Program-made: the position numbers and the translations under genes
Notes under the pieces: model-generated
Database searches by the model: none
What the model was told of the DNA's origin: nothing
The model's input: only the letters and a program-made list of their open reading frames with translations
Shown here: one piece after another, positions 38,413-57,277 of the stretch
How positions within the stretch are numbered: position 1 is the stretch's first letter
How the letters are laid out: every line of letters starts with the position of its first letter
IMG/VR virus record: IMGVR_UViG_3300035701_000012
Origin: a virus
Taxonomy: Duplodnaviria; Heunggongvirae; Uroviricota; Caudoviricetes
Strand: one strand, 5' to 3'
Length of the DNA stretch: 64,000 nt

Positions 38413-41400
38413 TTATTTACCTCTGAAAGCTAATATTGAAATTACAATAATTATTATAAGAACAATTATTGCAAAAATCATCAAAGGGCTTAGACCTATC
38501 CCTGCTTGAACTGTCTTGGTTGCGACAACATCAAAAGTTATTGAGTTCGCACTATCTTTGTATGTTCCAACAACATAGTATCTGTAAGGCACATTAGGTG
38601 GTTTCGGATAATATTTAGTAGCATCTGAAGGCAAACACATTCTGTAACTTACAGTTTTCTTTGCTACAGCAGGTATTGTTACATTCATAGTTCTCTTAGC
38701 TATATCTATGTCGCTGAATGAATTCCAAAGGCTTGACCCATCTCCGCTATCGTGAAATGAAAGTTCTATAGTTATCGGGTCATAATTCAGATTCGTAAGC
38801 GTTACATCTATATTATCACACTGACCCAATCCCATAGATTCGGTTTTTTTGTTCGTATCCATAGTCCATGTAGCGTTCAATCCAAGAGCTGCTCCTGTTA
38901 AGCCTATTCCTCCTGTTCCTCGAATGAGTTGAGATATTGTGAAATTCACTACGATTGTTTGCACTGTAGAATTGTAGCAGGTTATGTTGAAAAGATTTGA
39001 CCCTGTATGACCGAGATTGTTACTATCTGTGAATAAAGTATTATTAGCTACGAGAAATTCTCCGCTTTGACCATTTACATCCCAAACACAGGTATAATTA
39101 CCATTTGTTCCTGTTATGTTGAGAACAATATTGATGACTGTTCCGCCATCATAAATGGTAGAAACAGGCGAATAGAGTGTGATGTTGATTGATGGAATCA
39201 ATACAGTTATTGTGATATTGTTGCTAAATGAATGTGTGCAATTATTTTGGTCACAGGCGGAAACTCGTATTGAATAACTTCCTGTTGTCGAAGCATTTAC
39301 AGTCCAATTAAAATATGTATTTGTTGTATTCCCAATAAACCTTTCTTCAGATAAATGATAACCATCAGATAAACTGATATTGTAAAATATCGGGAATCCG
39401 TTAGGCGAACTTGAAGCATTCCATGTTATATTGATTGAATCTAATCCTGCTATGAATGAACCACCTGTTGGATTCGTTATAACAGGTGAAGTAGGCGGTA
39501 AAATCAGCGTGAAGGAAACATTTGATGAATTTACTATCCCTACTCCTGTTGCAGCATATATAATAAGCAAGTTACTGTTCGGAGTAACGTTGAACGTGAC
39601 ATTTCGGCAATTAGGTAGGGTAATATTCGGAGAACCATTCAAAGAATAGGAACAGTTTGTTATATCGTTAGAAACTGTATAATTCATGGAAATAATTGTA
39701 TCATTGTCTCCATGATAATATGTTGTATTTGTTGGCGATTGAACCGAAAGATTACCAGCGATATGAACCAAAGTAAAAGGTCTTGATAAAGCAAATGATG
39801 TCTGAGATGAATTGTCAATAGCGGTAACTCTGATTACATATTGAGTAGGAGTGTTAAAAGTGAAATTCGTTGAGTTCCAAACATAATAAAGATTCGGATA
39901 GTTGTTTTCTATTATCGTTGAATTGAACGATTCGTTTGCATTTAATAGAGAAATATTGTAGCTTACTATAGCAAATTCATTAGGAGACACACTCATTATG
40001 TATGTTATGTTAATCAATCCATCTCCATAACTTGTATTTTTTGGGTTAGTTAAAGCAGGTGCTGAAGGAGGTAGCCCACCAGCTTCTAACAAATCAGGTC
40101 TTATATCCGAACAGTTCTGACCGTATGAACCGTTGTCAAGATACCCATTAGCACATACATAATAATACAATGATTCATTTCCTTGATATTGATGTAAATG
40201 AGAATCTAATGTTCCTGAAAGATTCAACCAAGTTGTTCCTAAATCTGTAGTTATTTGTGTAGCATCGACTCTACTCACATTAGATATATACCAAGCATCC
40301 CATATCGCTGCTGTAGTTACAGGAACGAAAATAAAATACGAAGTAGGTGTTACTTTCACAATACTTCCATTAGCGTATCCTGATGTTGCGTTCACAGGAA
40401 ATGAAACAACGTGATGACTGCTGTATTGTGAATGAGTATGATTAAACGGAACAGTCGGGCTTAATGTGAATGTATTATCGCAGAATGGACTGAAGAATGG
40501 GTCTCCTGTTACATAACTCGAATTACAATACCAAACTTGTATAGAGCCAATTGATGTTGAATTCATATTCACTTCTAAAAATGAAAATGTAGATGAGTTA
40601 CTGACATTCAAAAACTGAACCTTTATTGCATACGATGTTGAAAGCATAGAAAAGTTCAAATGTGGTGTAGTTTCCATATCGTCTTCTGGGAAATTATAAA
40701 TCGCTGGATAGACTTCATTATCATCCATCGTGAATGACCAATTTATTGTTTGATTTGAATAAGTTACTCCTGCTGTCTGAAAACCTGAGCTTCTCGCTGT
40801 TCCGTTTACAAAAACGATTTGGTCTGTGATAGAATTGTTTGTTTTATAATAGAAAACTACCGAATCGTTGTCATACTGAATCGTATAATTCGCTTGAAAT
40901 TTACTTTTCCCGAATAGATTTGTTGAACTAATATCAACAGGATATTGATTGATATATGTTATCAACAACGCATTAATTTTTATCGTGAAATAAACCGTAG
41001 ATGATGTTGAATTTTGCGGAAATGTATCTTGACAAATAACATAAACATGATTCGAGCCTATTGAAACATTCGCCAAATTGAATCTCGTCAAAGTATTATT
41101 TGAGACCGAGCCAAGCGAAACGTTTGCTGTATCATTCAATGAATACCAGCATAATGAAGAGGTCGCTATATCATCTATTATTGTTATATTCAAATCTATT
41201 TGATTCGTTGGAGACGATACAAAAATAGTTGTATTCGTTGGATAGCTCAAATTGATTGAAGGCGGATTGTCAATTATTTCTGTGAAAAATGTTGTGTTAG
41301 TAGCGTTCTGAGGAAGACTGTCTTGGCAAGTTATTCCTATTGTATGAGACCCTGAAGTTGAAAAGTTAATATATTCTTGATAAGAGCTTCCGTTATTCAC

Positions 41401-43719
41401 ATTACTTATTGATACATTAGCCGAATTATCAACACTCTTCCAACAAGTCATAATAGATGCTGTATCATCGGTTACTGTGAAATTTAATTTCACTAAAGTG
41501 CTTCTTGAACTAACGGTTGTTGTCGTATTCAAAGGCGAATTTATTGTTATGATAGGCGGAGAATCAATAGTAGCTGTAACATTCTGAGGACTTCCAAACG
41601 ACATAGATTCAAGATTGCTTGGATAATCTAAGAAAACTTTCATGTTATCGCTTTCAGAATGATAAATATATCCGCTATCATATTGATTGAAGAAAGGTTT
41701 TAGAAGTGTATCATTTCCCAACGAGGTCGAATTGAATAGAATATAAGGTGTAGTAGTATCATTATCCGATACTTTAATATAACCTGCATAACCACTACTA
41801 CCGATGACTTTTAATTTGACATCATAAGTAACATTTACTAAAAAATCGAAGTCTTCTGTTGAACCGCTTGAGCAAAGAGCACCTTCACATTTTCCAATTT
41901 TCCAAGAAGGTTGCCAAAGCGAACCCCAGAGATTAGTTGACAATCCACTTGTAACAGTAGTATCTTTCCATCCTGTTCCCGAATATGGATTTAAAACTAA
42001 AATTATGTCTCTCCAAGTAGTTTTAAAATAAAATGTCAGACCATCTTCTCTTGTAAAGTTTTGGTCAGTCATGAGAACCATTTTGTCCCATCCACCACCT
42101 GTTCCTGCTGTGACATTTAATATATCATTTTGAAGTTTGAAACCTACAGAAAGATTGATGATAACAAATTTTGAAAGATTGAGTGAAGCTGTAGTGAAAT
42201 CATCAGCAAACATATATGCAGTATTAAATCTGCTTGTATTTTCTACATTAGAATTATTCCAATAGAACCAAATCGTGTAAAGAGAATTATTTGCTATAAA
42301 ATCAGTAACTCTCACATCTACTATTGTATTTCCTGTCGGACTGTTATTCACGATATAATAATTCAATGGGTTTGAAACATTCAAAGAAATATTGAAAAAT
42401 CTCAAGCTCGATAAATTATTCGATTGAGAATAATTGAAATTTGTATCATTCAAAACCAACCTGAAGGTAAAATTATTGCTTCCTTTCCATGTGTTATTTA
42501 TTATTACATTATTTTTTTTTGTCCAATCAGTTAAAAAAACAGGCGGAGATTCAGGCGAACCTAACTGTTGAGTTACAGGGAAAAACATTTTCTTGGCTGA
42601 ATTGACCCTTTGATTCTGAGGATACAATGATTTTGGCAAGTCTACATTAATTTTGAAGGTTTGATTAGCATATAAATCTGGGTCAGTATTGATAAATCCC
42701 CACCCGGTTGAGATAGAAAATGTTTCATTTCTTCCGAGAGCAGAATCTATTGCCATAGATTCTCCTATACCTGTTCCATTATCAACACCTGTAAAATATG
42801 ATGTGTTATATTGACCTGCTTTACTTATATCTTGTTCTGTTGTATTTTGGGCAGTTTGGAAAAATTCAAAAAGGAAACTTATACCTGCATTTGGAACATG
42901 AGCCCACGAATCATCTGACCTCCAAGTTTCTACTCCTATCCAAGCATCGTGCCTTGTAGTTCCATAATAAAATGTAAATATTTCTGTTGGATGACATGAT
43001 GCGGATGTAGCTTGAGATAGTTTATATCTCTTAACGAAAGTTCCGTTATATAAATGTGTCAAAGTCCAAACTGTAGCATGAATATCTACACCGCAGAATC
43101 GGTGCATTCCATCCCAACCATAATTCGGAGAAACAGGTGATGTTTCATTTACCGTAGGGTCTTGAATAAATAGTTGTCTTATACCATTTCTTTGAGTGTT
43201 GCTGACTCCAGAACATAGCCAATATATTGTTGAAGTAGTGTTGATTTTATATACACAATCTGAGAAAAATCCTACTGTTCCATCTGATTCTTTGATACCT
43301 GTGAAAGTATAGGCTACCGCACCTGTTTTGTTATAATAAATCCAATAGTCAGAAGTATTTGTCGTGAAATTTATGACAAAAATAGCAAAGGAATCGTTGT
43401 TACTTGCCCATACTCCAGAAGAATCCTCATAAAGATTAGACCCATTTATGATTTCAAAATTCACATTCTCGTTAAGACCTGTTCGGTTTGTAATTATTCT
43501 GATATCTTTGTATCCGTAGATTTTTGGAATATTCAATGCTGTCAGATTGATTGTTACGACCTCATCGGGTCTATAGATAGAATAGACATCGTTAAATGTC
43601 ATTTGAATCCTATTTTTATAGGATGTATCCCACCAATCTGTGGCGTGAACATTCATAGCCATTGCAAGAAAAATTATGCTGAACAAAATAACTATAAATT
43701 TTCTTTCCATCCTTTGCAC
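38413..43719 (-). CDS. giant (1768 aa) surface glycoprotein: signal peptide, very high N-x-S/T density, C-terminal TM anchor
   Basis: MQRMERKFIVILFSIIFLAMAMNVHA signal; C-terminal LSPLMIFAIIVLIIIIVISILAFRGK; dozens of sequons. Confidence 0.8.
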   Translation of the reverse strand: MQRMERKFIVILFSIIFLAMAMNVHATDWWDTSYKNRIQMTFNDVYSIYRPDEVVTINLTALNIPKIYGYKDIRIITNRTGLNENVNFEIINGSNLYEDSSGVWASNNDSFAIFVINFTTNTSDYWIYYNKTGAVAYTFTGIKESDGTVGFFSDCVYKINTTSTIYWLCSGVSNTQRNGIRQLFIQDPTVNETSPVSPNYGWDGMHRFCGVDIHATVWTLTHLYNGTFVKRYKLSQATSASCHPTEIFTFYYGTTRHDAWIGVETWRSDDSWAHVPNAGISFLFEFFQTAQNTTEQDISKAGQYNTSYFTGVDNGTGIGESMAIDSALGRNETFSISTGWGFINTDPDLYANQTFKINVDLPKSLYPQNQRVNSAKKMFFPVTQQLGSPESPPVFLTDWTKKNNVIINNTWKGSNNFTFRLVLNDTNFNYSQSNNLSSLRFFNISLNVSNPLNYYIVNNSPTGNTIVDVRVTDFIANNSLYTIWFYWNNSNVENTSRFNTAYMFADDFTTASLNLSKFVIINLSVGFKLQNDILNVTAGTGGGWDKMVLMTDQNFTREDGLTFYFKTTWRDIILVLNPYSGTGWKDTTVTSGLSTNLWGSLWQPSWKIGKCEGALCSSGSTEDFDFLVNVTYDVKLKVIGSSGYAGYIKVSDNDTTTPYILFNSTSLGNDTLLKPFFNQYDSGYIYHSESDNMKVFLDYPSNLESMSFGSPQNVTATIDSPPIITINSPLNTTTTVSSRSTLVKLNFTVTDDTASIMTCWKSVDNSANVSISNVNNGSSYQEYINFSTSGSHTIGITCQDSLPQNATNTTFFTEIIDNPPSINLSYPTNTTIFVSSPTNQIDLNITIIDDIATSSLCWYSLNDTANVSLGSVSNNTLTRFNLANVSIGSNHVYVICQDTFPQNSTSSTVYFTIKINALLITYINQYPVDISSTNLFGKSKFQANYTIQYDNDSVVFYYKTNNSITDQIVFVNGTARSSGFQTAGVTYSNQTINWSFTMDDNEVYPAIYNFPEDDMETTPHLNFSMLSTSYAIKVQFLNVSNSSTFSFLEVNMNSTSIGSIQVWYCNSSYVTGDPFFSPFCDNTFTLSPTVPFNHTHSQYSSHHVVSFPVNATSGYANGSIVKVTPTSYFIFVPVTTAAIWDAWYISNVSRVDATQITTDLGTTWLNLSGTLDSHLHQYQGNESLYYYVCANGYLDNGSYGQNCSDIRPDLLEAGGLPPSAPALTNPKNTSYGDGLINITYIMSVSPNEFAIVSYNISLLNANESFNSTIIENNYPNLYYVWNSTNFTFNTPTQYVIRVTAIDNSSQTSFALSRPFTLVHIAGNLSVQSPTNTTYYHGDNDTIISMNYTVSNDITNCSYSLNGSPNITLPNCRNVTFNVTPNSNLLIIYAATGVGIVNSSNVSFTLILPPTSPVITNPTGGSFIAGLDSINITWNASSSPNGFPIFYNISLSDGYHLSEERFIGNTTNTYFNWTVNASTTGSYSIRVSACDQNNCTHSFSNNITITVLIPSINITLYSPVSTIYDGGTVINIVLNITGTNGNYTCVWDVNGQSGEFLVANNTLFTDSNNLGHTGSNLFNITCYNSTVQTIVVNFTISQLIRGTGGIGLTGAALGLNATWTMDTNKKTESMGLGQCDNIDVTLTNLNYDPITIELSFHDSGDGSSLWNSFSDIDIAKRTMNVTIPAVAKKTVSYRMCLPSDATKYYPKPPNVPYRYYVVGTYKDSANSITFDVVATKTVQAGIGLSPLMIFAIIVLIIIIVISILAFRGK

Positions 43720-43771: not shown

Positions 43772-44467
43772 TCAGCCTGTTGGAAGCAAAAACAATATCA
43801 ATAGCAACAAAATTGCCAAAATTAAAGTGAAAGCTAACCATTTCACAGGTTTTTTTCTGAAATCTTTCAACTTAAACAAAACAAACAATCCGATTATAAG
43901 CATGAAAAAAATCCATTTAGGAAGTATAAATCCATCGGAAGTAGTTTGCTGGGTTATAGTATTATTCGTATCATTCTGAAGAACAGAATTTTTTGTCCAA
44001 GACACTCTCCATCCGGTAGATAATCCACAATATAAAAACTGAGAAATCCCGGAATCTATCTGATTTGTCCCGAATGCTATCATGGTTTTTCTTAAACAAT
44101 CCTGCTTGACAACATCTATTGAAACAGGTATGACTGAAAAGTAGTTATCAGTAGTATCGTTTACAAAAATGAAATTTCTCACAGTTTGATTGTTCACAAA
44201 AAAATAAAGAGTAAAATTTGAATATGGCTGAAAATCATTCTTTGGATTGACTATTATGATAGATGGCGATGGTGATGAAAATTCCACAGTTATGTTGAAA
44301 TTGGCTGTATTACGAAAGTCAATCGTTCCATATCCTTCTGAAAGCGTATCATCAATAAAACTTCTGTCTGCTCTTACATAAGGCAAAAACGTATCGGGTT
44401 TTGCTGTGGCTATAAATATCGCCAAAAGAATAAACATCGCCAAGATTACTATCCAGAATTTATCCAT
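43772..44467 (-). CDS. membrane protein (signal peptide plus C-terminal TM pair) between the two giant genes
   Basis: hydrophobic N-terminus and C-terminus; overlaps the upstream gene by 8 nt. Confidence 0.55.
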   Translation of the reverse strand: MDKFWIVILAMFILLAIFIATAKPDTFLPYVRADRSFIDDTLSEGYGTIDFRNTANFNITVEFSSPSPSIIIVNPKNDFQPYSNFTLYFFVNNQTVRNFIFVNDTTDNYFSVIPVSIDVVKQDCLRKTMIAFGTNQIDSGISQFLYCGLSTGWRVSWTKNSVLQNDTNNTITQQTTSDGFILPKWIFFMLIIGLFVLFKLKDFRKKPVKWLAFTLILAILLLLILFLLPTG

Positions 44468-47400
44468 TTTTTCGTCTCCTCTTTTTACTTGCTCTTCTGA
44501 TAAGCCAAATCGTAATTATAATTAAAACTATGATTATCCAAAGCAATGGCGTAGAAAAAGCTCTGACTATTGCTGATGGAGAATCTTTGAAAACAAACGG
44601 AGATGTCATGAAATCGGCAAAAGCCTGAACTATTATTGGCACTGCTGGTATATTGGTAACTTCTACATCAATCGGTATGATTTTTGCCCAGTTTTGAGAC
44701 TTGGTTAGTATGTTAAAAGAATATCTTTTATATACTGTTCCATCGGGAACGCAAGTTGTCACATTAAAAAACGCTTTTCTGTTGTATTCTGTCGAACCTC
44801 CGGGAACTACCATAAAAAACGTAGTTGAAGTGCCATTGAATCTTGTCCAAGTTGCTGAATGGTCTCCCAAATCAACCAAAACTAATCCCAATTCTAAATC
44901 ATTTGCTTTTGTATTGCCTACTAAAAAATCATAAGTAAAACACTGAGCTTTATCCAATTGAATTATTCTATGGTCTGGTGTGAAATACCAAGTAACATTA
45001 CCACAATCTATCAAACAAATCTGTTCTTCACCGGGAGTGCAAACACCATCACCACATATATTCAATCCACCTCCACCACCAGTTAAAATCACTCCTCCTG
45101 TCACACCGCCACCACTTGGCGGAGCAGCAACAAATAAACCTAATGTGAAGTTGAGATTAATTGTCGAGTTTGTAATATTCAAATCGGTTACGTTGATTTG
45201 CCAATGACCAATATTAAAATAATCAGCAAAAGGCAGATACATGAAAAAATATCCTGTGCCATTGACAGTTGTATTGGTTTCATTCGCTAAAAAAAGAATA
45301 GATGAATTCGTAACATTCGGAGCATACCATCTAATCCTTATTGTTGCATTGTCATAATATGTTCCATTTGACTGATAAAGATGACCTGAAACAAAACCTT
45401 GCTCATTCGTAAGATATTGTATATTACCTACACTTGCTGTAAAAATAATTGGTGGAGGCGGTAGCGGAATAAATTCTACTGTGAAATTAGTTGTAATCAA
45501 ATCTGCTGAATGAACAGGTATCATTAAAAAGATAGTCACAAAAACCAAAAGCACGACCATTATCGGCTTTTTTGAATCATTCTTGAAAAGATAAATGCAA
45601 CCAAATGCTGACGAACCCACTAATATTAACATGATAATGTTAATAACATTAACAGGATAATAACTCGCCATTGGGTCGATGATTGCTGAAGGCACTGTAT
45701 TTTCCTGAGTAGCGACAACTCTTCCGATAGGCTCTGTGCCGTAGCTTATCCAAACTTCATTCGGGTCTATCTGAATTTCCCTGATAACGCTATAAGTTCC
45801 AACCGGCACTTGAGGTCTTAATTTTACTATGAACGAAATGTTTGTCAACATTTTTCCTACAGTTTCAACCTCTAATGGTTGGCAATGAGGAGTCGAATTT
45901 GTTGATTCATTGAATTGGTCAATACAATTTCCATTGCTATCCAAAAACCAATAATTTATTCTCACAGGAAGATAATTTGTATCATTGAATCCTGCCTTCA
46001 AAGGTATGAAAATACTGTAATTGATTGTAAGCGATGATGTTTCGTTCAATATTAAATTTGTTATGTTCTCTGATAGCAATACGCTTTGGTTTGTTCTGAA
46101 CAAATAATTCCAAAGATTATTCACAACCGTATTAGTATTGGCAGTATAAATTGTGACCTGAGTTCCATTTAGGTCTGTGAGAGTTCTATATGAAAACGAC
46201 CAAATGTCTGCTGCGGTCACATTCACGAATGTGGTGTTATAGTATGTCAGCGTTCTTTGAGTAGAATTCCAAATATAGAGAGCTTGTGTTTGATAATCAA
46301 AAACTGTCAGGCTTCTATTTGGGAAATTCCAAACATCTTCGCCTGTTATGTTCGCCATACCTTTGAGGATGCCTATTATTTCTGTATTATTGTAGTCCGT
46401 AAGAGACCTGACTGAAAAGTTCCAAACATCTGATGCTGTTATGTTTGACAACCCATTCAGCAATCCTATTATTTCTGTGTTGTTATATTCTGTCAGAGAC
46501 CTGTTTCCAAAAGTCCAAACATTTGCTGCTGAAAGATTCGACAATCCATTTATCAAACCGATGATTTCAGTATTGTTATATTCCGTCAAAATTCTGTTGG
46601 AATAAATCCAAACAGATTGGGCGGTGAGATTAGAAAGATTGTAAAATCCCTGACCGATTGTTACATTTATATCAGAAAGTATGATATAGATTCCACTGAG
46701 ATTGTAATCTGAAAGTGTGCGGTTTGTATATGCCCAAACTTGTCCTGCTGTCAAATTAGATTGACCTAATAAAATTCCTTTAATTTCAAAGGTCGTATCG
46801 TTGATTCCTAAAACATATCCTTTCATCTCACTCAAATTATAATCCGTTAAAACTCTTGATGCAAACGACCATACTTGGTCGGCAGTCAGATTCGATAGTC
46901 CGAGTAGGATTCCCTTGTTTGTATAAACTGTGCCGTTGATGTCTATCACGAACCCACGAATCTCGCTAAGATTGGCTTCTATATTTGAGAAATTTATTCC
47001 TGATGTATTATAGAAAGTAAGTGTCCTATTGGAATAAGACCATACTTGGTCAGCTGTCAAATTCGCCATGCCTTTTATCAATCCATTATTTTCATAGACT
47101 GTGCCGTTGATGTCTATCACGAATCCATGAATTACTGAATTGTTGTAGTCAGTCAATTCTCTGACCGTATAATTCCAAACTTGTCCAGCTGTCAGATTCG
47201 ACAAACCAAGCAGGATTCCTTTGTTTTCATAGGTCGTTCCGTTTATTTCAATGATTATAGATTTTATTTCACTCAAGTTATAATCTGTTAGAGTTCTCGA
47301 TGAAAAACTCCAAATTGCTGAAGGTGTTGTCGCATTGAATGTTAGGTTAAATAACAAATTTTTATTGATGTAAACAGTATCATTAATGTCCACGATGTAT

Positions 47401-50400
47401 CCGAAGATTTGGCTACTATTGTAATCTGAAAGTGTGCGATTAACATAATTCCAAACTTGCTGTGCGGTTAGATTCGATGAGCCGAGCAGAATGCCTTTGT
47501 TCTCAAAGACCGTTCCGTTTATTGATACCAAGAATTCTCGGATTTCAGTCAGATTATAATCTGTCAAAGTCCTGACAGTGTAATTCCATGTTGCATTCGG
47601 AAGATTTATCAACAGATTATTATTTGAGTAAATCGTTCCATTGATGTCAATCAGAAAAGCTCTAATCTCAGATAGATTATAATCTGTAAGTGTGCGGTTT
47701 ATGTAAGACCATACTTGTTGAGCAGTTAGATTCGCCTGTCCGAGCAGGATTGCCTGATTCGTATAGACAGTTCCGTTTATATCAATCGCATATCCCTTAA
47801 TCTCAGATAAATTATAATCTGTCAATGTGCGATTCAAATATTCCCATACCTGTTTAGCGGTAAGATTCGACATTCCCTGAAGTAAACCTTTATTTTCGTA
47901 AACCGTGCTGTTGATGTCCACAACATAAAGATATATCTGAGAATTGTTGTAATCAGTCAAAGTGCGGTTTGAATAAGTCCAAACCTGCTGTGCGGTCAAA
48001 TTCGCTTGTCCGAGCAACACACCAAGAATTTGCGTTACTGTATCATTTATTGAAGTCAAATCTGTGGAAGTAGTATTATAAAACGTAAGTGTTCTGGTTG
48101 TGTAGTTCCAAACCTGCTCGGCAGTAAGATTGGCAAGACCACGAATCAGATTGCGGTTTTCATAAACCGTATCATTGATATCAACTACATACAGATATAA
48201 TTGAGTTGTGTTATAGTCCGTAAGAGTTCGTGTGCTATAAGTCCATACTTGAGCTGCGGTTAGGTTTGCCTGACCCAAAACTATGCCAACTATCTCTTTT
48301 GTGGTCAAATTTATGTCATTTAGGTAGGCTAAAACATCACTTTGATTATAATCAGTGAGAGTTCTTGTCGTATATGACCAAATTTCTCCGGCAGTAAGAT
48401 TTGTTGAATTATAGAAAGTCAGAGTCCTTGTTGTCGAATTCCAGACATACAATGCCTGAGTTTCGTAATCAAAAAACGTCAAAGACCGATTGCTATATAA
48501 CCAAACATCCTGTGCTGTAAGGTTAGACATTCCTTTCAGGAGTCCTGCTATCTCAGATAGATTGTATTCTGTCAGACTTCTATTGGAAAATGACCATATT
48601 TGCGAAGCAGTGAGATTAGACTGTCCGAGTAGAATACCTACTATCTCAGATTGATTATAATCCGTCAAAGTTCGGTTATTGAATGCCCACACCTGCTCGG
48701 CTGTCAGATTTGACATTCCTTTCAATAGACCGACAATTTCCGAATTATTATAGTCGGTAAGACTTCTATTGACATAAGTCCATACCTGTTGTGCAGTGAG
48801 ATTTGATAACCCATTAAGAATTCCAATGCTATCATGCATAGTTGCATTTATGTCCACCAAATAAATGAATGTTTGGCTATTGTTGTAATCCGTCAGACTT
48901 CTTTGAGTGAATGACCAAATTTGTGTGGTGAGATTTTCTGTAAGGTTTCCGAGCAAAAGTTTGTTAACATAAACGGTATCATTTATGGTAACAACATAAC
49001 CTTTGATTTCGGAAAGATTGTAATCGGTCAAAGTTCGACTCACATACGACCATACCTGAGCCGATGTAAGATTAGAAAGTCCTCTGATTAATCCTCTATT
49101 TTCGTAAACGGTATCATTGATTGCCACAACATACATATAGATTTGAGAGTTATTGTAATCTGTGAGAGTCCTGCTATTGAACGACCATACTTGCGAGGCG
49201 GTAAGATTTGCTTGACCAAGAACGATACCTTTTATGTCCCAAAGTGTTGTATTGATGTCCGCCAAAAAGAGATAGATGCCTGATTGATTATAATTTGTCA
49301 AATCTCTAACAGGAAAACTCCAAATATCTGCGGTTGTTATGTTATTCACGGTTGTATTATAGAAAGTAAGCGTTCTGCTCGTTGCGTTCCAAACATAGAG
49401 AGATTGCGTTTCATAATCAAAGAAGGTTAGATTGCGACTGTTGAAATCCCATACTTGCTGTGCGGTTAGATTACTCATACCTTGAAGTAGTCCTTGAATT
49501 TCAGATAGATTATACGAGGTAAGACTGCGATTACTGAATGTCCATACTTCGGTGGCAGTCAGGTTGGATAAACCACGAATTAATCCAATGACTTCTGAAT
49601 TATTGCTATTCGTAAGTTCACGGTTCATATAAGTCCAAATTTCCTGAGCTGATAAATTATGCAGACCATGAATTGTTGTGTTGATGTCAATGACTGTTCC
49701 GTTGATTTGCGTGAGAATCAGGAATGATTCACTCATATTATAATCCGTCAAAGTTCTTGTTGTAAATGACCATATTCTCGAAGGCATTGTATTGTTGATG
49801 TCATTTACAGTCCCATTTATTTCCGTTACGAATGACCTGACCACATAGATTGTTTGGTTAGCATCAATGACGATTCCTCGAATCTCCGTCAGATTATTCA
49901 TCACACCTGAAAGATTATAATCAGTCAAAACTCTGTTATTAAAATTCCATACAAAATATGGCATCGTTGAATTCATGACTGCAAGAAATTGCTGTATGTT
50001 CGTAAAATTATTCGGTATACTGACTTGTAAAGTCTGATTCCAATAGACGAAATATCGGTTTTCCCAATTCTGAATCGCTGTAAAGTTATTAAAAATATTC
50101 GTATAATTCACATTTTGCGATAGAATGATTGCATCGAGCTTCTGATTAATAGCGGTGAAATTGTTGTTCCATGCCACGAACAAGGTATTATTGAAATATG
50201 TCAGGTAAAGATTGCTCGATGATGAATTGCTCAGTATGAGTGAAAGATTTTCCAAAACCTGAGAAAAGTTTATCTGTTGAGTATCAAGTTTCTGATTTAT
50301 CACTGTGAAGTTATTATTCCAATACTGATACAGCGTTCCGTTCCAATATATGAGAAAACTGTTTTGATAGCTCTGATTATTCAAAACGAATGTCAGATTT

Positions 50401-52664
50401 GCGAGGATGCTGTTCAATTGATTTGTGTGACCAACGAGTTTGTTATTGATGTCAGTGAAATTATTGTTGTAATTTATGAAGACCGTTCCATTCCAATACA
50501 AGAAGTATCGGCTTTCCCAGTTCTGTATGGCTGTGAAATTATTGAAAATATTTGTCATGTTTGTATTGAGATTAGTATTGATAGCGTTTACTGTGAAATT
50601 TGTCTGATTCGTCAGCACCAATACCTGATACAATGTTCCGTTTATCGAAATGATATTTGTTAATGAAGTATTAATCAAATATCCCAACAAAAATTGATAT
50701 TGTTGTCTAAGTTGAACTGATGCAAAAGTTTCAAATTCTTGATAATAACCTACCAAATCTCCTGCATCTATTGAAGTAAAAGATTGATTCCAAAAAGTGT
50801 ATGCCCAATATTCAACGTCTTTTAAATAATGACAAGTTTGCAATTGAAAATTTGTAGAAATATTTGTCGTAGCAAGTATTGGAACTGTATAATTATAATT
50901 ATTCAAAGTAGCCAAAGGGTCACAAAATACACCATTTGTGTTGTTGACATAATCCAGTTGATTTTTATACTGTACCATTTTATATCTCATGTAATTATCC
51001 ATCTTAATCCAATATCGTGTTGTCTGACTTGAAACCAAATCTATTGGAATATCTAATTGACAATTTGCTGCTATAGGCGTTGTCATAATTATATTACTGT
51101 TCAATCCAGCAGAGGTATTTACATCCTGCCACTGATTGGATGTTGTGTTCAAGAATTTTACCCAATAGACACCTTGACAACTTACTGCTGTTGGTGTCTG
51201 ATATGTCCAATAAGACCCTGCTTGATTTACCGAGCCTGTTATATTAATATAATCATCTAAATCGCCTTCAGGAAAGCCATACAAATCAGTATTGTTTATT
51301 AATGCACATGAAGATGAACCTGCCCGACCTACAGGAGAATTAGCATATTTAGAACCGCAGAGAGTTGTTATCGTATAAAGTTGTTTGTTTGCAACACTTG
51401 TAACGTGCATTTCTCCTGAACCTTTTATTTCCTGAACCATTCCCTGAGCAGTCGCTATCTGTATATTCAGCCAATTATCAAATTCAGAAAAAGAACTTCC
51501 GAATGTATTTAACATTCTTATTCTTATCATACCTGTTGTTGAGTTAATAATGTTAGTAAGAGGCAATGTATTTGATTGAAAATCACTGATACCTATTGGT
51601 GCGGTAGTCGCTGTGCCTGAAAATGTCAAAGTGTTCGGTAAAGTTATCCAAGAACCATTAGTCCAATTCCAAACATAATAAGTCATCAAAGACGTAACGC
51701 TACTTTCTCCCATATAAAAAAGACTCATATATGTTACATTTGTTAAATTTGAAAAATGTATGGTAGTATTGAAATCATAATAGGAATCACAGGTTTTTGT
51801 AGCACCTCCTGTTGAAGAACATTCCTGATAAATCCAATCTTCATAATCAGTCAAGAAAAACGGAGACCCTGCGAATGTTCCTGCTGTGACAGTTCTGTTC
51901 GGAAAAAATGTTTCGTCACCTGACAGAGAATAAACAAAAGCCTGACTTGTAGCATAAGAACATTTTGATGACAACATATAAACTCCAAGCAAAGATGGTA
52001 TGTTGAAATCATAATAATATATTCCATCATCACCAACAGCTTTTAGCATAGGTGCATCATGAATTGTGTATGGATGTGTTAGATTCGGAGAACTTGGATA
52101 CCAAATATCAACAAAGCATGAAGCCTGACCCACAGGCAAACCTTGTTCGTCAATTACTTGAACAAAAATAGTAGCGAGGTCTCCCTGTGAATATTCTGTT
52201 CCTGACATTTTTATTTGTCCTATTGGTTTATTTGTATAAGTTATTTCTAAAAATCCAACTGAAGAACCAACATCTTTATCGGAAAATATTGTAAAATTAT
52301 AGAGACCTGATTGTGTTATGATATTTGAACAATCAAACGAAGCTATTGCAAACCCAGAAGAAGTTCCCGACCAACTTGGATTATTACATCTTTTACCATT
52401 TGCCCAAAAATCAATTCTTTGAGGCGATGAAGTCACAAACAATTGAAAACTGACCATAGCTGAAATTACACTACCGATTTTATCAGGTGGATTAAGTGTT
52501 AGATTGTAAGTGTAATTTATGTTTTTTGTCATGGATTCTCTGTAGAAAGGATTGAGATAAATCTTGCTGTAAATTTGACCCTGTTGGTCGGCTTTGACCG
52601 TCTGAACTGCTAAGACTAATGAGAAAGCTATGAATACCAAAATCATTACACAAATTTTCTTCAT
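44460..52664 (-). CDS. giant (2734 aa) surface glycoprotein with about 40 tandem ~38-40-aa repeats (SNLTAxQVWxYxNRxLTDYNxSEI...) and C-terminal TM anchor
   Basis: signal peptide MKKICVMILVFIAFSLVLAVQTVKA; each repeat carries 2-3 sequons; C-terminal LLWIIIVLIIITIWLIRRASKKRRRKNG. Confidence 0.8.
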   Translation of the reverse strand: MKKICVMILVFIAFSLVLAVQTVKADQQGQIYSKIYLNPFYRESMTKNINYTYNLTLNPPDKIGSVISAMVSFQLFVTSSPQRIDFWANGKRCNNPSWSGTSSGFAIASFDCSNIITQSGLYNFTIFSDKDVGSSVGFLEITYTNKPIGQIKMSGTEYSQGDLATIFVQVIDEQGLPVGQASCFVDIWYPSSPNLTHPYTIHDAPMLKAVGDDGIYYYDFNIPSLLGVYMLSSKCSYATSQAFVYSLSGDETFFPNRTVTAGTFAGSPFFLTDYEDWIYQECSSTGGATKTCDSYYDFNTTIHFSNLTNVTYMSLFYMGESSVTSLMTYYVWNWTNGSWITLPNTLTFSGTATTAPIGISDFQSNTLPLTNIINSTTGMIRIRMLNTFGSSFSEFDNWLNIQIATAQGMVQEIKGSGEMHVTSVANKQLYTITTLCGSKYANSPVGRAGSSSCALINNTDLYGFPEGDLDDYINITGSVNQAGSYWTYQTPTAVSCQGVYWVKFLNTTSNQWQDVNTSAGLNSNIIMTTPIAANCQLDIPIDLVSSQTTRYWIKMDNYMRYKMVQYKNQLDYVNNTNGVFCDPLATLNNYNYTVPILATTNISTNFQLQTCHYLKDVEYWAYTFWNQSFTSIDAGDLVGYYQEFETFASVQLRQQYQFLLGYLINTSLTNIISINGTLYQVLVLTNQTNFTVNAINTNLNTNMTNIFNNFTAIQNWESRYFLYWNGTVFINYNNNFTDINNKLVGHTNQLNSILANLTFVLNNQSYQNSFLIYWNGTLYQYWNNNFTVINQKLDTQQINFSQVLENLSLILSNSSSSNLYLTYFNNTLFVAWNNNFTAINQKLDAIILSQNVNYTNIFNNFTAIQNWENRYFVYWNQTLQVSIPNNFTNIQQFLAVMNSTMPYFVWNFNNRVLTDYNLSGVMNNLTEIRGIVIDANQTIYVVRSFVTEINGTVNDINNTMPSRIWSFTTRTLTDYNMSESFLILTQINGTVIDINTTIHGLHNLSAQEIWTYMNRELTNSNNSEVIGLIRGLSNLTATEVWTFSNRSLTSYNLSEIQGLLQGMSNLTAQQVWDFNSRNLTFFDYETQSLYVWNATSRTLTFYNTTVNNITTADIWSFPVRDLTNYNQSGIYLFLADINTTLWDIKGIVLGQANLTASQVWSFNSRTLTDYNNSQIYMYVVAINDTVYENRGLIRGLSNLTSAQVWSYVSRTLTDYNLSEIKGYVVTINDTVYVNKLLLGNLTENLTTQIWSFTQRSLTDYNNSQTFIYLVDINATMHDSIGILNGLSNLTAQQVWTYVNRSLTDYNNSEIVGLLKGMSNLTAEQVWAFNNRTLTDYNQSEIVGILLGQSNLTASQIWSFSNRSLTEYNLSEIAGLLKGMSNLTAQDVWLYSNRSLTFFDYETQALYVWNSTTRTLTFYNSTNLTAGEIWSYTTRTLTDYNQSDVLAYLNDINLTTKEIVGIVLGQANLTAAQVWTYSTRTLTDYNTTQLYLYVVDINDTVYENRNLIRGLANLTAEQVWNYTTRTLTFYNTTSTDLTSINDTVTQILGVLLGQANLTAQQVWTYSNRTLTDYNNSQIYLYVVDINSTVYENKGLLQGMSNLTAKQVWEYLNRTLTDYNLSEIKGYAIDINGTVYTNQAILLGQANLTAQQVWSYINRTLTDYNLSEIRAFLIDINGTIYSNNNLLINLPNATWNYTVRTLTDYNLTEIREFLVSINGTVFENKGILLGSSNLTAQQVWNYVNRTLSDYNSSQIFGYIVDINDTVYINKNLLFNLTFNATTPSAIWSFSSRTLTDYNLSEIKSIIIEINGTTYENKGILLGLSNLTAGQVWNYTVRELTDYNNSVIHGFVIDINGTVYENNGLIKGMANLTADQVWSYSNRTLTFYNTSGINFSNIEANLSEIRGFVIDINGTVYTNKGILLGLSNLTADQVWSFASRVLTDYNLSEMKGYVLGINDTTFEIKGILLGQSNLTAGQVWAYTNRTLSDYNLSGIYIILSDINVTIGQGFYNLSNLTAQSVWIYSNRILTEYNNTEIIGLINGLSNLSAANVWTFGNRSLTEYNNTEIIGLLNGLSNITASDVWNFSVRSLTDYNNTEIIGILKGMANITGEDVWNFPNRSLTVFDYQTQALYIWNSTQRTLTYYNTTFVNVTAADIWSFSYRTLTDLNGTQVTIYTANTNTVVNNLWNYLFRTNQSVLLSENITNLILNETSSLTINYSIFIPLKAGFNDTNYLPVRINYWFLDSNGNCIDQFNESTNSTPHCQPLEVETVGKMLTNISFIVKLRPQVPVGTYSVIREIQIDPNEVWISYGTEPIGRVVATQENTVPSAIIDPMASYYPVNVINIIMLILVGSSAFGCIYLFKNDSKKPIMVVLLVFVTIFLMIPVHSADLITTNFTVEFIPLPPPPIIFTASVGNIQYLTNEQGFVSGHLYQSNGTYYDNATIRIRWYAPNVTNSSILFLANETNTTVNGTGYFFMYLPFADYFNIGHWQINVTDLNITNSTINLNFTLGLFVAAPPSGGGVTGGVILTGGGGGLNICGDGVCTPGEEQICLIDCGNVTWYFTPDHRIIQLDKAQCFTYDFLVGNTKANDLELGLVLVDLGDHSATWTRFNGTSTTFFMVVPGGSTEYNRKAFFNVTTCVPDGTVYKRYSFNILTKSQNWAKIIPIDVEVTNIPAVPIIVQAFADFMTSPFVFKDSPSAIVRAFSTPLLWIIIVLIIITIWLIRRASKKRRRKNG
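46400..50600 (-). repeat. DNA-level degenerate tandem repeats (~114-120 bp) encoding the protein repeats of the 2734-aa gene
   Basis: periodic recurrence of ...aatctcag/ttataatc.../gtcaga... units on the + strand, mirrored in the protein periodicity. Confidence 0.55.
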
Positions 52665-53017: not shown

Positions 53018-53833
53018 TCATTTTCTTAATCTGAAAAACAAAACTGCTGTCATTGAAAGCATGAAAAGTATTATTGTCCAACCAATCCACATGATTCCGG
53101 GGATTCCTCCTGTTCCTGAAAATATCGTAATGGCGAAATTATTGGCAGCGTGAATCATAAACGGAAATAGCAAATTTCTTGTAACCAAAACTGCCAATGA
53201 CATCATGAGACCGAAGAAAAATACGCTGGTTGAAGCCGGAACGTTAACGGTTCCATACACTAAAAAATGGAAAAACATGAAGGACAATGGAGTAAGTATT
53301 CCTGTTATAGCCATCGAAATATATTGATTTTTAGTTCCTATGTAAACTACTCCATATATCAATGCGAGTAAAACGCCCCAGAAGAAAAAATCTTCCATAG
53401 AACTTGTAAATACGACCAGAATCGCTTGGACTCCGGGAGTGGAAGCAATCACTTGAAACTGCGGAGCAGCTACGAGCTGAAATAAAGGTGTTCCTGCAAC
53501 GCTGAAAAAAACATAAATTGCGATTATTGATGCAATCAAAAACATCAAAACTGTCTGCCGTCTATCAACTTTTCCAAAAACATTTTCTGATTCCCAGATT
53601 ATAGGATTTGGAAAATCAACACTGCCTTTGACTTTTGTGATACCTTTTGAAACTCCCCAAATAGCTATTCCAGATAATCCCAAAACCCAATAGATTAGAG
53701 CCTTATCCTTGAGACCGGGGACATTAATTGTATAGAATGCGAGAACTATAATAGATATTGTAAGATACATGAGAAAGATTATCTTTAAAGATGTCACTTC
53801 GTCTGTTGCAAGATTGTCCGGGCTATTAGCCAA
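53018..53833 (-). CDS. CPBP-family (CAAX protease-like) intramembrane metalloprotease
   Basis: about 7 TM helices; motifs MEDFFFWG (EExxxR-like), FMFFH (FxxxH), IHAANN (HxxxN). Confidence 0.55.
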   Translation of the reverse strand: MANSPDNLATDEVTSLKIIFLMYLTISIIVLAFYTINVPGLKDKALIYWVLGLSGIAIWGVSKGITKVKGSVDFPNPIIWESENVFGKVDRRQTVLMFLIASIIAIYVFFSVAGTPLFQLVAAPQFQVIASTPGVQAILVVFTSSMEDFFFWGVLLALIYGVVYIGTKNQYISMAITGILTPLSFMFFHFLVYGTVNVPASTSVFFFGLMMSLAVLVTRNLLFPFMIHAANNFAITIFSGTGGIPGIMWIGWTIILFMLSMTAVLFFRLRK

Positions 53834-53909: not shown

Positions 53910-54914
53910 TTATGAGTTGTTCAGCGTTGCCTTTACCTGCGATACTCCGACTTTTGTTCCTGCTGAATCAAATGTGCCGACCTTTATCGTTGAATCTATG
54001 TCTTGGAAGTAATTCACATCGTTGAAATAGACAACTGGGTCGTCACTTGCACCTGCTGATGTGCCTCCGTCATTGCTGACTTTTCCGTTTACGGTTACTG
54101 CAGCCATATTCGAGTTGATTGCAGGTATCTTGTAACATCGGTTACACGATTCCACAGCAGTCATCTTCGGATATTGAGTGCAATCCACTTCGGTAAGAGC
54201 AATGTCAGATGATGTCAGAGCAACAGCCTTGTCGGTGAACACAGCAGAGTTAACGGTGTCGATGCAAATTACTCCACCAAATTCCGTGCTACCAAATTGT
54301 GCAAATTGTGTTACTCCCGGAGTTACAAGAATCTTGAAGTTTCTTGTCTGTCCGCTACTCATTGCGGAAGCAGCCTCTTCGGTTGTAACAGCATTTTGAA
54401 CTGATGTATTTACACCAGTATTGTAGTCAAGGAAAGTTAGGTTGACTTGTCCTGCCAAAGGTGCATCAACAATAACGTTTGCTGCGGTTCCTGCTATTGT
54501 GTAGGTTGCTTTTGCAGATGTTTGATTTGCAGCTGCAAGAACATACAAGTTACCATTGAAGTTCTCTGATGTGCAAGGAACTGAAATTGCTGTTCCATAG
54601 CTCAAAGAAGAACCGCCAACGGTTGTGCCTGTTGCTACCAATAGGTTATTTGCGTTCACAATGTTAACAGATGTTGACAGATATTGCGTTGAAGGACTCA
54701 CAGGATTTCTTACAGCGGCATACAGACCCAAATTCGTCAGACCTTGACAAGTCTGAAGAGATGGTGCTGATGGAGTGACAGGAGCTCCCGGAACGGGTGC
54801 GCCTACTGCCTGAAATGTAACAAGACCTGTTGAACTTCCTATAAACACAAGAGCTGCAACCAGAACTACCAACATTGTAAGGGTTACGACAACACTTGTT
54901 GATTTTTTAGCCAT
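53910..54914 (-). CDS. secreted or cell-surface Thr/Ser/Ala/Val/Asn-rich protein with N-terminal signal anchor (possibly class III/pilin-like)
   Basis: MAKKSTSVVVTLTMLVVLVAALVFIG... then low-hydrophobicity T/S/N-rich beta-type composition. Confidence 0.55.
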   Translation of the reverse strand: MAKKSTSVVVTLTMLVVLVAALVFIGSSTGLVTFQAVGAPVPGAPVTPSAPSLQTCQGLTNLGLYAAVRNPVSPSTQYLSTSVNIVNANNLLVATGTTVGGSSLSYGTAISVPCTSENFNGNLYVLAAANQTSAKATYTIAGTAANVIVDAPLAGQVNLTFLDYNTGVNTSVQNAVTTEEAASAMSSGQTRNFKILVTPGVTQFAQFGSTEFGGVICIDTVNSAVFTDKAVALTSSDIALTEVDCTQYPKMTAVESCNRCYKIPAINSNMAAVTVNGKVSNDGGTSAGASDDPVVYFNDVNYFQDIDSTIKVGTFDSAGTKVGVSQVKATLNNS

Positions 54915-55948: not shown

Positions 55949-57277
55949 TCAACCCGTCTCTTCCAAGTGTTCACTAAGTGGTGGATACGGAAAAAATATG
56001 GTTTCTTCTTTCAGAATTCCATCCACCATATACCATTCTCTTTCTCCGTTTGCTTTTGTCCGCATACCTCTGATAGTATCAGAAACATCTCTCGTAAAAC
56101 TTGGGTGAAAATCCGCTTTTTGGTAAGCCTTCAGGATGCACACCAATGACTGTGTATCAATATTATTGGCACAAAAAGTATATCTCGATTGCGTTAACAC
56201 CCAATTTGGCAACATATCCGCCCTTTGGGCAGCAAACAAAATATAAATTCCCAATATTCTCCATTGGTTCACTGCTCTCATTAGTTCTTCTTTGGTAGTT
56301 TCCATTCTCAAAAACACAGGAGCTTCATCTATCACTAACAACATTCTTCTTTTTTTGTCAAGATATTTTTCTTTTGCATTTCTGATGATTCTTTGACAAA
56401 CAGAAAAGAAAACTAAAGGAGTAGTAACGAATTCTCCTTTTGCTATATCTTCAAAGTGCTGATGATTGAAAACTACAACATAATCATCTTTCAAAGCCTG
56501 AACAATATCGCCAAGACCTTCTTTACTGCAAATCTTGTATCTAATCAACCCTTCTATCCTGCGAGATATTTTTTCCTTCATAGATTTTGAAACTTTTTCA
56601 TCTTCTTTGATTTTTTGTCTCAATTCTTCAAGAGAATCAACATAATTATAGTAAAGCGATACAATATTCGCATGGTCAACTGTTTGTGGTGTCGTAAAAT
56701 TAAGAAGTGAAAGAAGGTCATTGAGAGAAAGGTCTGAATATTTCAACTGAAATGGTTCATTGTCTTCCGGCAATTCTTCATCAAAATAAGCGGTATAAAA
56801 TGTTGGTCTGTATACTTTCATTTTCATAGGCATAGGCATATCTTCTTTTGCGAGAAGTGGAATGAATCTCCTTTGGCTTTCCATTGATGACCTCATTTCA
56901 TTTTTTACATCAGTCAAAAAGACAATATAAAACTTTGCGCCATTAGCCATATCGCATAATCGTCTCAATATAAAAGTTTTTCCAGAACCCGATTGACCAA
57001 CTACTAACATCCGGATAACCCTTTTCATATCGAGCCATAATTCTTCTCTCATTCTTTGCCTTTCTCTGAAATTGAATTTCTCAGTATAGCCGAAATGAAA
57101 ATACGATTTAGAGAATGCCATTTCTTTTTTCAAAGGATATTGTCTCACGACCATGAAGTTTCTGCCTTCACTCACATTCTTGAATGATTCAAAACTGCGT
57201 AGACCTCTGAATTGCGGAGATTGATACTGCTGATTAGTAAAAGGAAATTCTAACATACCACTATCAAATAATGTCAT
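55949..57277 (-). CDS. FtsK/HerA-superfamily P-loop ATPase (putative DNA translocase or packaging/secretion ATPase)
   Basis: Walker A VVGQSGSGKT; Walker B MLLVIDEAPVF; downstream LFAAQRADM resembling the (T)QR(P) sensor/arginine-finger box. Confidence 0.65.
   Translation of the reverse strand: MTLFDSGMLEFPFTNQQYQSPQFRGLRSFESFKNVSEGRNFMVVRQYPLKKEMAFSKSYFHFGYTEKFNFRERQRMREELWLDMKRVIRMLVVGQSGSGKTFILRRLCDMANGAKFYIVFLTDVKNEMRSSMESQRRFIPLLAKEDMPMPMKMKVYRPTFYTAYFDEELPEDNEPFQLKYSDLSLNDLLSLLNFTTPQTVDHANIVSLYYNYVDSLEELRQKIKEDEKVSKSMKEKISRRIEGLIRYKICSKEGLGDIVQALKDDYVVVFNHQHFEDIAKGEFVTTPLVFFSVCQRIIRNAKEKYLDKKRRMLLVIDEAPVFLRMETTKEELMRAVNQWRILGIYILFAAQRADMLPNWVLTQSRYTFCANNIDTQSLVCILKAYQKADFHPSFTRDVSDTIRGMRTKANGEREWYMVDGILKEETIFFPYPPLSEHLEETG

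Follow-up and report, generated by a model that had tools for sequence, protein, structure and literature searches.

A giant sequon-rich repeat protein, putative surface fibre of an archaeal virus-like mobile element, from an unannotated family with a conserved head and zero to 78 repeats

Surface fibres of viruses or mobile genetic elements (MGEs) carried on repeat stalks are already known as a kind of object. The VP4-type spikes of pleolipoviruses and the end-fibre proteins of fuselloviruses serve in host attachment and consist of a signal peptide, an N-glycosylated ectodomain, a C-terminal transmembrane segment (TM) and a short basic tail. The shafts of the adenovirus fibre and of reovirus sigma1 are triple beta-spirals made up of 15–16-residue repeats with variable loops, the copy number of which sets the length of the shaft. 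Archaeal fusexins are, in the searched passages of Moi et al. 2022 (PMC9259645), located in integrated elements of more than 50 kb with XerC/D, HerA and VirB4 signature genes, and the fusexins are proposed to drive fusion-based gene exchange. Here we describe a protein of 2,734 residues encoded in the IMG/VR virus record IMGVR_UViG_3300035701_000012, a stretch of 64,000 nucleotides referred to in its entirety as the window. The protein belongs to a family, so far unannotated, in which a predicted signal peptide and a three-domain head are followed by zero to 78 copies of a short repeat. On balance we favour the reading that an archaeal virus-like mobile element, the host of which is probably a DPANN archaeon, makes this protein as a fibre for adhesion or receptor binding, anchored in a membrane and heavily N-glycosylated.

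The open reading frame (ORF) was found without one difference over its full 8,205 bp in three other assemblies (two Logan runs and one JGI metagenome), whose contigs match the window at 100.000% identity over stretches of up to 28 kb. The ORF is thus no assembly artefact, and repeat collapse or mis-assembly is unlikely because the units are well diverged in DNA. Its parts are the following; N-x-S/T sequons, the potential sites of N-glycosylation, are counted where they matter.

44460..52664, minus strand: whole ORF, 2,734 residues plus stop codon (ORF call; DNA identical in contigs L003, L004 and L005).
52590..52664, minus strand: signal-peptide-like N-terminus, residues 1–25, likely cut after VKA (MKKICVMILVFIAFSLVLAVQTVKA/DQQ), from hydrophobicity.
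51357..52589, minus strand: conserved N-terminal head, residues 26–436, three beta-sandwich domains with the family motif KGSGEMHV at the end.
50598..51356, minus strand: optional domain D, residues 437–689, common to some family members, from blastp.
49977..50597, minus strand: second repeat type, residues 690–896, about four units of about 50 residues with NNFT; 17 sequons.
46137..49976, minus strand: main repeat block, residues 897–2176, 34–36 cores of the type NLTxxQVWxYxNRTLT in units of 31, 45, 20 or 23 residues; 110 sequons.
46372..46614, minus strand: sole DNA tandem repeat according to Tandem Repeats Finder (TRF), 93 bp × 2.5, three 31-residue units.
45654..46136, minus strand: post-repeat membrane-proximal domain, residues 2177–2337, 48.5% identical to residues 2086–2218 of the relative P0027 (E 1e-39).
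45501..45653, minus strand: TM hairpin, with a TM at residues 2338–2358, a basic loop KNDSKKP and a second, signal-like TM at residues 2366–2386; two-gene fusion junction, from hydrophobicity and the end of P0027.
44577..45500, minus strand: second ectodomain, residues 2389–2696, made up of a glycine-rich linker, a CGDGVC...DC cysteine motif and a beta-rich domain; 15 sequons.
44463..44576, minus strand: final TM and basic cytoplasmic tail RRASKKRRRKNG, from hydrophobicity.

The chain contains four hydrophobic segments: one at the N-terminus, assigned as a signal peptide from hydrophobicity without a dedicated predictor, two that lie about 10 residues apart at residues 2338–2386, and a last one at residues 2697–2720, followed by RRASKKRRRKNG. 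The signal peptide, long ectodomain, C-terminal TM and basic tail described in an earlier note on this DNA are therefore all seen, with three TM segments after the signal peptide in place of the single one proposed there. When the topology is predicted for one chain, both sequon-rich stretches are placed outside and both basic stretches (KNDSKKP and RRASKKRRRKNG) inside. There are 174 sequons in the ORF, where 1,000 shuffles of the sequence give 58.6 ± 6.5 (maximum 81), an excess over chance of about threefold. The repeat block has 8.6 sequons per 100 residues and the other outside parts about 5, while the tail has none, and the cytoplasmic ATPase and integrase of the window have 0.3–0.5 per 100 residues. 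In the cores the sequons occupy fixed positions relative to the tryptophan: W-7 in 26 of 34, W+4 in 13, W+11 in 31 and W+23/24 in 25. The count, the outside-only placement and the near-absence from the cytoplasmic proteins bear out the idea of well over 100 potential N-glycosylation sites on an anchored extracellular protein. By this pattern, the sites would be expected to be glycosylated in vivo.

The C-terminal part appears to have a separate origin. In P0027 (2,268 residues), the closest relative with the full architecture, window-type repeats are followed by the post-repeat domain (48% identity) and a TM equivalent to that at residue 2338, about 10 residues beyond which the protein ends. 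At the position of that stop, the window ORF reads on through ...KNDSKKP-IMVVLLVFVTIFLMIPVHSA... into a module of 366 residues with its own signal-like start, cysteine motif, beta-rich domain, TM and basic tail. Residues 2479–2609 of the ORF resemble residues 1563–1668 of a giant neighbour (E 4e-6), and the C-terminus of the giant protein upstream of the family member in contig L018, judged by eye, is laid out like the second ectodomain.

38413..43719, minus strand: partner glycoprotein of 1,768 residues, with a signal peptide, a DUF2341-like start (TDWWDTSYKNRI), Ig-like repeats and 105 sequons.

Given where P0027 stops and the likeness of the module to the C-terminus of the 1,768-residue neighbour, the best reading of the ORF is that two anchored proteins have been fused: it looks like a complete anchored protein joined to a second, 366-residue anchored module, the junction having the appearance of a stop codon lost between two adjoining genes. 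An internal start may exist at Met2369.

The main repeat block was dissected by anchoring on W-x-[YFA]-x-x-R-x-L-T. Thirty-four cores conform to this expression and two more come near to it, all within residues 897–2176. Each unit consists of a 16-residue core and a variable linker, so that cores are spaced by 31 residues (eight copies), by about 45 (about 17 copies) or by 20 and 23, with a mean of about 38. The 45-residue unit is a 31-residue unit with a 14-residue insert of the type YVVDINDTVYENKG, and a higher-order pattern, 31-31-31-20-23, occurs three times. The mean spacing accounts for the 38–40 residues given previously for some 40 back-to-back repeats over residues of about 700 to 2080. 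That ORF, which lies on the minus strand, and the existence of its repeats are confirmed; the extent, the copy number and the uniform unit length are replaced by residues 897–2176, 34–36 cores and units of 31, about 45, 20 or 23 residues, and residues 690–896 contain another repeat. This other repeat has the pattern YWNGT...NNNFT.IN.KL and no homologue among about 195 family proteins retrieved.

A first, word-indexed homologue search gave one match, P0001, a protein of 3,610 residues with 78 cores at periods of 16, 21, 24 and 27 residues and with 219 sequons. As its period goes down to 16 residues, the core is the minimal unit and the rest is linker. An exhaustive search of 1.84 billion proteins with a profile hidden Markov model of the unit gave 804 representatives (clusters at 50% identity) at E ≤ 1e-3, 255 of them at ≤ 1e-10 and 66 at ≤ 1e-30; a search with a two-core profile gave 93 candidates, with one 53-residue match. 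The proteins with at least five cores among the best 150 of the 804 matches fall into two classes, with 73 members in class 1 and 57 in class 2. Class 1 proteins have the head of the window protein and three or more sequons per 100 residues, class 2 proteins have other N-terminal domains and fewer than three. An N-terminal hydrophobic segment is present in 61 of the 73 and in 12 of the 57, respectively, and there are 1.31 against 0.31 sequons per core. At position W+4, asparagine is found in 42% of class 1 cores and in 11% of class 2 cores, where threonine or serine is common; at W+6 it is found in 48% of class 1 cores and is not among the four commonest residues in class 2 (each other residue ≤ 4%). 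From this contrast, the sequons are a lineage-specific overlay on a shared structural core.

With a profile of the head, 47 proteins of 460–760 residues were found (E 1e-53 to 1e-160), which are 34–54% identical to the head of the window protein and have zero to nine cores each. The window protein has all the features that define this family: a signal-like segment, a head of about 400 residues with invariant GTEY, DGIYYYD-like and GSxEMH motifs, and, after the head, tandem (V/I)W-x-[YFA]-x-x-R-x-L-T cores. On these sequence features, it is a member. Further examples are P0027, P0009, P0001, P0076, P0044 and the NCBI entry QXR60_04095, from a metagenome-assembled genome (MAG) of Candidatus Nanoarchaeia. 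Domain D is matched in P0180, P0051, P0131, P0005, P0043 and P0025 (E 5e-26 to 1e-10). Sequon density in the family is 3–10 per 100 residues. The C-termini vary and include ARYTHGxIL, a Cys...EWGVxIxxC motif, LNVTLYVxK and TM anchors. Members such as P0003, P0012 to P0014, P0025, P0028, P0030 and P0044, among others, lack a TM and end in a conserved motif such as ...VWNYxARYTHG(V/I)IL; the conserved motifs of these TM-less members may be alternative attachment or sorting signals. Compared with the family, the window protein is among the largest, with about 35 cores where most relatives have zero to nine and P0001 has 78; it has the 45-residue long unit and the extra NNFT block, and its fused second anchored module is seen in none of the relatives compared.

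Searches with the ORF of Pfam, PHROGs, NCBIfam and the sequences of the PDB returned nothing meaningful. No curated tail-fibre or fibre-repeat model covers it: PHROGs gave no match and Pfam gave sub-threshold or summed spurious ones, those to NCBP3, SAM_PNT and DnaA_C being summed repeat noise without an individually significant stretch. The match of the repeat profile to PDB polyubiquitin (up to E 4e-16) was also discarded, as it is produced by a chance 9-mer, RTLSDYNIQ, at ubiquitin residues 54–62, which recurs once per ubiquitin copy. Such a match could mislead automated annotation. A tblastn search of 50,697 phage genomes with the ORF and with the class 2 protein P0055 gave no match, and a literature search for the repeat motif found nothing. 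In the libraries and literature searched there is no description of the repeat family, of the head family, of their bacterial and archaeal spread, of the way the sequons overlie the core, or of the fusion of two genes.

Class 2 proteins lead to phage-like contigs. Fourteen IMG/VR contigs match the tandem-core pattern, nine with low-sequon IWEYxTRTLT repeats and two others with sequon-rich ones. On a 109-kb contig, 7 kb separate the gene for P0055 from a tape-measure gene. P0060 matches a Microcystis phage gene with 53% identity in its N-terminal domain; in that phage, the gene comes after an 849-residue hypothetical gene and some 1.5 kb upstream of the lysin gene. A match of P0060 to Xanthomonas phage XaC1 was set aside as an unrelated S/T-rich repeat. 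P0055, P0060, P0065 and the proteins of the nine IMG/VR contigs share with the window family the 16-residue core, with W, R, L and T invariant or nearly so, as well as tandem copies, variable linkers and virus-like contigs. Unlike the window family, 45 of the 57 class 2 proteins have no signal peptide, the N-terminal domains are others, threonine or serine stands where the archaeal proteins have asparagine, and GC content reaches 63%. The class 2 repeat is absent as a repeat family from Pfam, PHROGs and NCBIfam and has no match in the deposited phage genomes.

Structure prediction with AlphaFold2 (AF2) separates head and repeats. For P0044, the head of which is 45% identical to that of the window protein, an alignment of 48 sequences gave an all-beta head with a predicted local distance difference test score (pLDDT) above 90 over residues 28–430. 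In this model the head appears as two jelly-rolls like those of carbohydrate-binding modules (CBMs) and one macroglobulin- or invasin-like Ig domain. Foldseek comparison of the model with the PDB and with viral models gave the same fold classes, including tail-fibre and minor-tail proteins, at low whole-chain TM-scores. The resemblance to CBM29, 61, 27, 22 and 4 and to macroglobulin and invasin Ig-like domains is one of fold, with sequence identities of 7–14%, and as these modelled folds are very common they are by themselves no proof of sugar binding by the head. The repeats of P0044 were drawn at a pLDDT below 50, as short helices that stop at W-x-Y and lead into extended segments or coil, and a run on residues 1286–1597 of the window ORF, with a self-derived alignment, reached a mean pLDDT of 36.5. 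The beta-solenoid that had been expected was obtained in neither of these two runs, in which confidence in the repeats was low. Unit lengths in the family range from 16 to 57 residues, which argues against one uniform coil. Obligate trimers usually fail in monomer structure prediction. The variable units, taken together with the failed monomer prediction, lead us to prefer an oligomeric fibre, which would fit both better than a uniform solenoid.

The gene content of the window is virus- or MGE-like: no tRNA gene, rRNA gene or Rfam hit was found, and none of its ORFs matches Pfam families typical of core cellular functions. It encodes a tyrosine integrase, an SPFH protein, a methyltransferase, an RNA-ligase-like protein, an AdoMet decarboxylase, Vsr/NUMOD3 and HNH nucleases and an Rce1-like protease; some 70 further ORFs are without a family. 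The features referred to below are these.

9099–10055, plus strand: tyrosine integrase (Pfam 6e-23).
31544–32461, plus strand: SPFH/Band 7 protein (1.2e-34).
38080–38412, minus strand: small AdoMet decarboxylase gene (Pfam 1.7e-19), at the strand switch.
43772..44467, minus strand: membrane protein of 231 residues, overlapping the ORF stop codon by 8 nucleotides.
53018–53833, minus strand: Rce1-like (CAAX/CPBP) intramembrane protease with six TMs and no sequons, just upstream of the ORF.
53910–54914, minus strand: protein of 334 residues, an N-terminal TM followed by A/V/T/G/S-rich sequence, between the genes for the ATPase and the giant glycoprotein.
55949–57277, minus strand: P-loop ATPase of 442 residues, with matches to HerA/DUF87, poxvirus A32, a PHROG annotated as terminase and CedB/VirB4, all weak.
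58654–59394, minus strand: Vsr and NUMOD3 homing-type endonuclease; a Vsr gene is also present in the family contig L014.
61927–63624, minus strand: anchored glycoprotein of 565 residues, with a signal peptide, 19 sequons, a C-terminal TM and a basic tail, and no family match.

Genes on the plus strand (1–38 kb) meet genes on the minus strand (38–64 kb) at about 38.0–38.4 kb, and GC skew follows the coding strand on either side. No attachment site or tRNA gene is seen within the window. The source sequence continues for at least 13 kb past the end of the window, so the element measures at least about 77 kb; the first 10 kb beyond the 64-kb end (L037:1-10000, JGI Ga0373628_0000604) encode an AAA_25 helicase-like protein (623 residues), an RHH protein and an N6/N4 DNA methyltransferase. 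A Borg-like nature, considered for the low GC and the strand-polarised genes, was dropped, as TRF reports no near-perfect tandem arrays of the kind described for Borgs, and the ORFs are small and virus-like. The 334-residue protein, unlike its N/K/I-rich neighbours in composition, could be a major structural protein, the 565-residue glycoprotein is a candidate divergent fusogen or spike, and the Rce1-like protease may process surface proteins or protect against them. Genes for proteins of 226–238 residues come after those of P0001, P0044 and P0164, as the 231-residue gene does after the window ORF, with no sequence similarity detected between the latter protein and the former.

The contexts of other family members point the same way. 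Family contigs of 30–104 kb carry a Prim-Pol with DUF5906, RNA ligase, Vsr, HNH and many ORFans; all six neighbourhoods inspected are ORFan-dense, virus- or MGE-like and free of housekeeping genes, and IMG/VR holds at least three class 1 contigs as uncultivated viral genomes, including the 57,176-bp contig of P0044. When 185,579 species-representative genomes were searched with two peptide patterns, a single relative was found, on a 5.6-kb scaffold of the Candidatus Nanoarchaeia MAG, which is also the only named homologue. These contexts sustain the link to an element, and the alternative that the repeats are ordinary chromosomal adhesin domains falls away, as the two patterns give one hit only in the species genomes and that on a 5.6-kb MAG scaffold. 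From the same MAG, the host is probably a DPANN (Nanoarchaeia) archaeon.

In the reading as an adhesion fibre, the signal peptide would direct the chain through the Sec pathway, and the host oligosaccharyltransferase would glycosylate the N-x-S/T sites on the outside segments. The protein would be fixed in the cell membrane, or in a virion envelope derived from it, by its three TM segments and by the two basic stretches on the inside. The head, at the distal end, would most likely bind a glycan or protein on the surface of a target cell, held out on about 1,500 residues of repeats that would form a long, glycan-shielded stalk, in which the copy number would set the reach of the head. The 1,768-residue glycoprotein probably works together with the ORF protein: its C-terminal anchor module is of the same type, and its homologues are the giant DUF2341-like neighbours of family members in contigs L018, L009 and L014 (E 6e-11 and below). 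On sequence grounds, the shared module and the conserved giant neighbour support a joint role. Several points weigh against this reading. Neither the window nor the related contigs contain a recognisable gene for a capsid, a portal or any other virion component, for which reason the element could be plasmid-like or conjugative instead of a virus. Apart from the giant partner, the neighbours in the window have no detectable homologues beside family members. The repeats are not confidently folded, and their role as a stalk is read from their anatomy. For the host, the evidence is a single binned scaffold of 5.6 kb, and contigs of mobile elements are easily mis-binned; the same caveat is given for its own elements in the searched passages of the fusexin paper (PMC9259645).

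The main alternative, to which we give clearly less weight, is that a conjugation-like or fusion-based element displays the protein on the cell surface as an adhesin and not on a virion, the two giant glycoproteins docking a recipient or DPANN partner cell before DNA transfer or fusion. The missing capsid gene and several small multi-TM proteins around the ATPase would be in keeping with this, and so would the combination of a tyrosine integrase with a HerA/DUF87 ATPase, signature genes of fusexin elements. The ATPase gene is located 3.3 kb upstream of the ORF; whether the ATPase belongs to viral packaging or to DNA transfer would settle the type of element. Its best NCBIfam match is CedB, an archaeal DNA-import protein (3e-9), with VirB4/TraC weaker, but all of these are far under the family cut-offs and the poxvirus A32 packaging ATPase and a terminase PHROG are matched as well; used as a probe of IMG/VR, it found nothing. 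A further pointer to docking comes from contig L018, where the family member P0009 (1,894 residues, 30 cores, a C-terminal TM hairpin) is flanked by a homologue of the giant partner and, 0.65 kb downstream, by a fusexin of the HAP2/GCS1 family.

L018:10340-12034, plus strand: fusexin of 564 residues, PF10699 at 7.7e-10 (38.4 bits against a cut-off of 27.4), with a precomputed assignment to PF28161 (Fsx1).

This fusexin has a signal peptide, a CGNGVC...DC motif, a TM and a basic tail. As far as the searched passages of Moi et al. 2022 (PMC9259645) go, the window is like the fusexin elements in its integrase, HerA-like ATPase and large size, and L018 in having a fusexin; those elements were defined in haloarchaeal genomes, no fusexin was found in the window, and the passages do not mention the glycoprotein family. 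Searches of the window and of the 10 kb past its end detect no fusexin, and the HAP2-GCS1 and Fsx1 models match neither the ORF, nor its C-terminal module, nor the 570- and 334-residue neighbours. Elsewhere the repeat core occurs on phage-like contigs, and IMG/VR classes the related contigs as viral, both of which speak for the fibre of a virus-like element. A bolder extension, which we regard as improbable, takes the two giant glycoproteins and the fusexin of relatives such as L018 for a cell-cell docking and membrane-fusion apparatus of DPANN-type elements, with the repeat stalk as a length-adjustable tether across two glycan coats and the stalk module borrowed from, or donated to, phage fibres. 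If true, it would be the archaeal counterpart of gamete adhesion followed by HAP2-driven fusion.

We think it unlikely that the gene is a contingency locus, in which populations would vary in copy number through recombination or slippage of units, with receptor reach or antigenicity changing as a result. The range of copy numbers among relatives, the threefold presence of the 31-31-31-20-23 block and one three-unit stretch with 73–78% matches could be taken for traces of such a process, and the earlier note had described DNA-level tandem repeats of about 117 bp at 46.4–50.6 kb as a ready substrate for variation in repeat number. Neither claim is borne out. TRF finds nothing but the 2.5 units of 93 bp at 46372–46614; nucleotide identity between units averages 0.54–0.60 and is never above 0.73; and where two units have the same amino acid, the codon is the same at only 39% of positions, so the units are old and without sign of recent duplication or homogenisation. 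With the DNA-level tandem claim the argument from slippage fails too. Over evolutionary time copy number has shifted widely, with zero to nine cores in most relatives, 35 here and 78 in P0001. A near-identical strain with another copy number was not found in 241 million metagenome records, and the three identical assemblies, from different samples, represent one clone and are weak evidence on length alleles.

Of the three roles proposed earlier, S-layer, adhesin or virion spike, an anchored sequon-rich surface protein is upheld and the S-layer is the least likely: that the host archaeon itself makes this glycoprotein for its S-layer or cell envelope, from a gene that lies by chance in a variable genomic island, would suit the signal peptide, membrane anchor, very high sequon density, large size and the neighbour's DUF2341-like N-terminus (DUF2341 being common in archaeal surface proteins), but is very improbable in view of the lack of an S-layer family match in Pfam or NCBIfam, the absence of housekeeping genes from the window and from six related neighbourhoods that carry mobile-element genes, the near-absence of the family from the species genomes (two peptide patterns only), and a repeat number and C-termini too variable for a lattice protein.

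For the fibre of a virus-like element, then, the family offers concrete candidates for the attachment step in archaeal virus entry or fusion-based gene exchange, one element having a HAP2-type fusogen adjoining. It marks archaeal elements of 30–100 kb, possibly of DPANN hosts, with almost no virus or plasmid biology known. The repeat family, with 804 clusters, is missing from Pfam, NCBIfam, PHROGs and the PDB; once defined, it would allow hundreds of large dark-matter proteins to be annotated. The repeat is common to bacteriophage-like and archaeal elements, and the same core with N-x-S/T only in secreted archaeal-type proteins and with T or S in phage-type ones amounts to a natural experiment, which suggests selection for a glycan coat on an exposed fibre.

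Set beside the spikes and fibres already described, the protein combines traits of two groups. Like the pleolipovirus spikes and fusellovirus end-fibre proteins, it has a signal peptide, a large sequon-rich ectodomain, a TM anchor and a basic tail. No sequence similarity to these proteins was detected, no virion genes of their families were recognised here, and they are five to ten times smaller, with no comparable repeat stalk. From the adenovirus and sigma1 shafts the window family differs in its consensus, in having no PDB sequence match and in the short helices, not beta-spirals, that AF2 draws at low confidence. It resembles these shafts in its short minimal unit, 16 residues in P0001, and in its very variable linkers.

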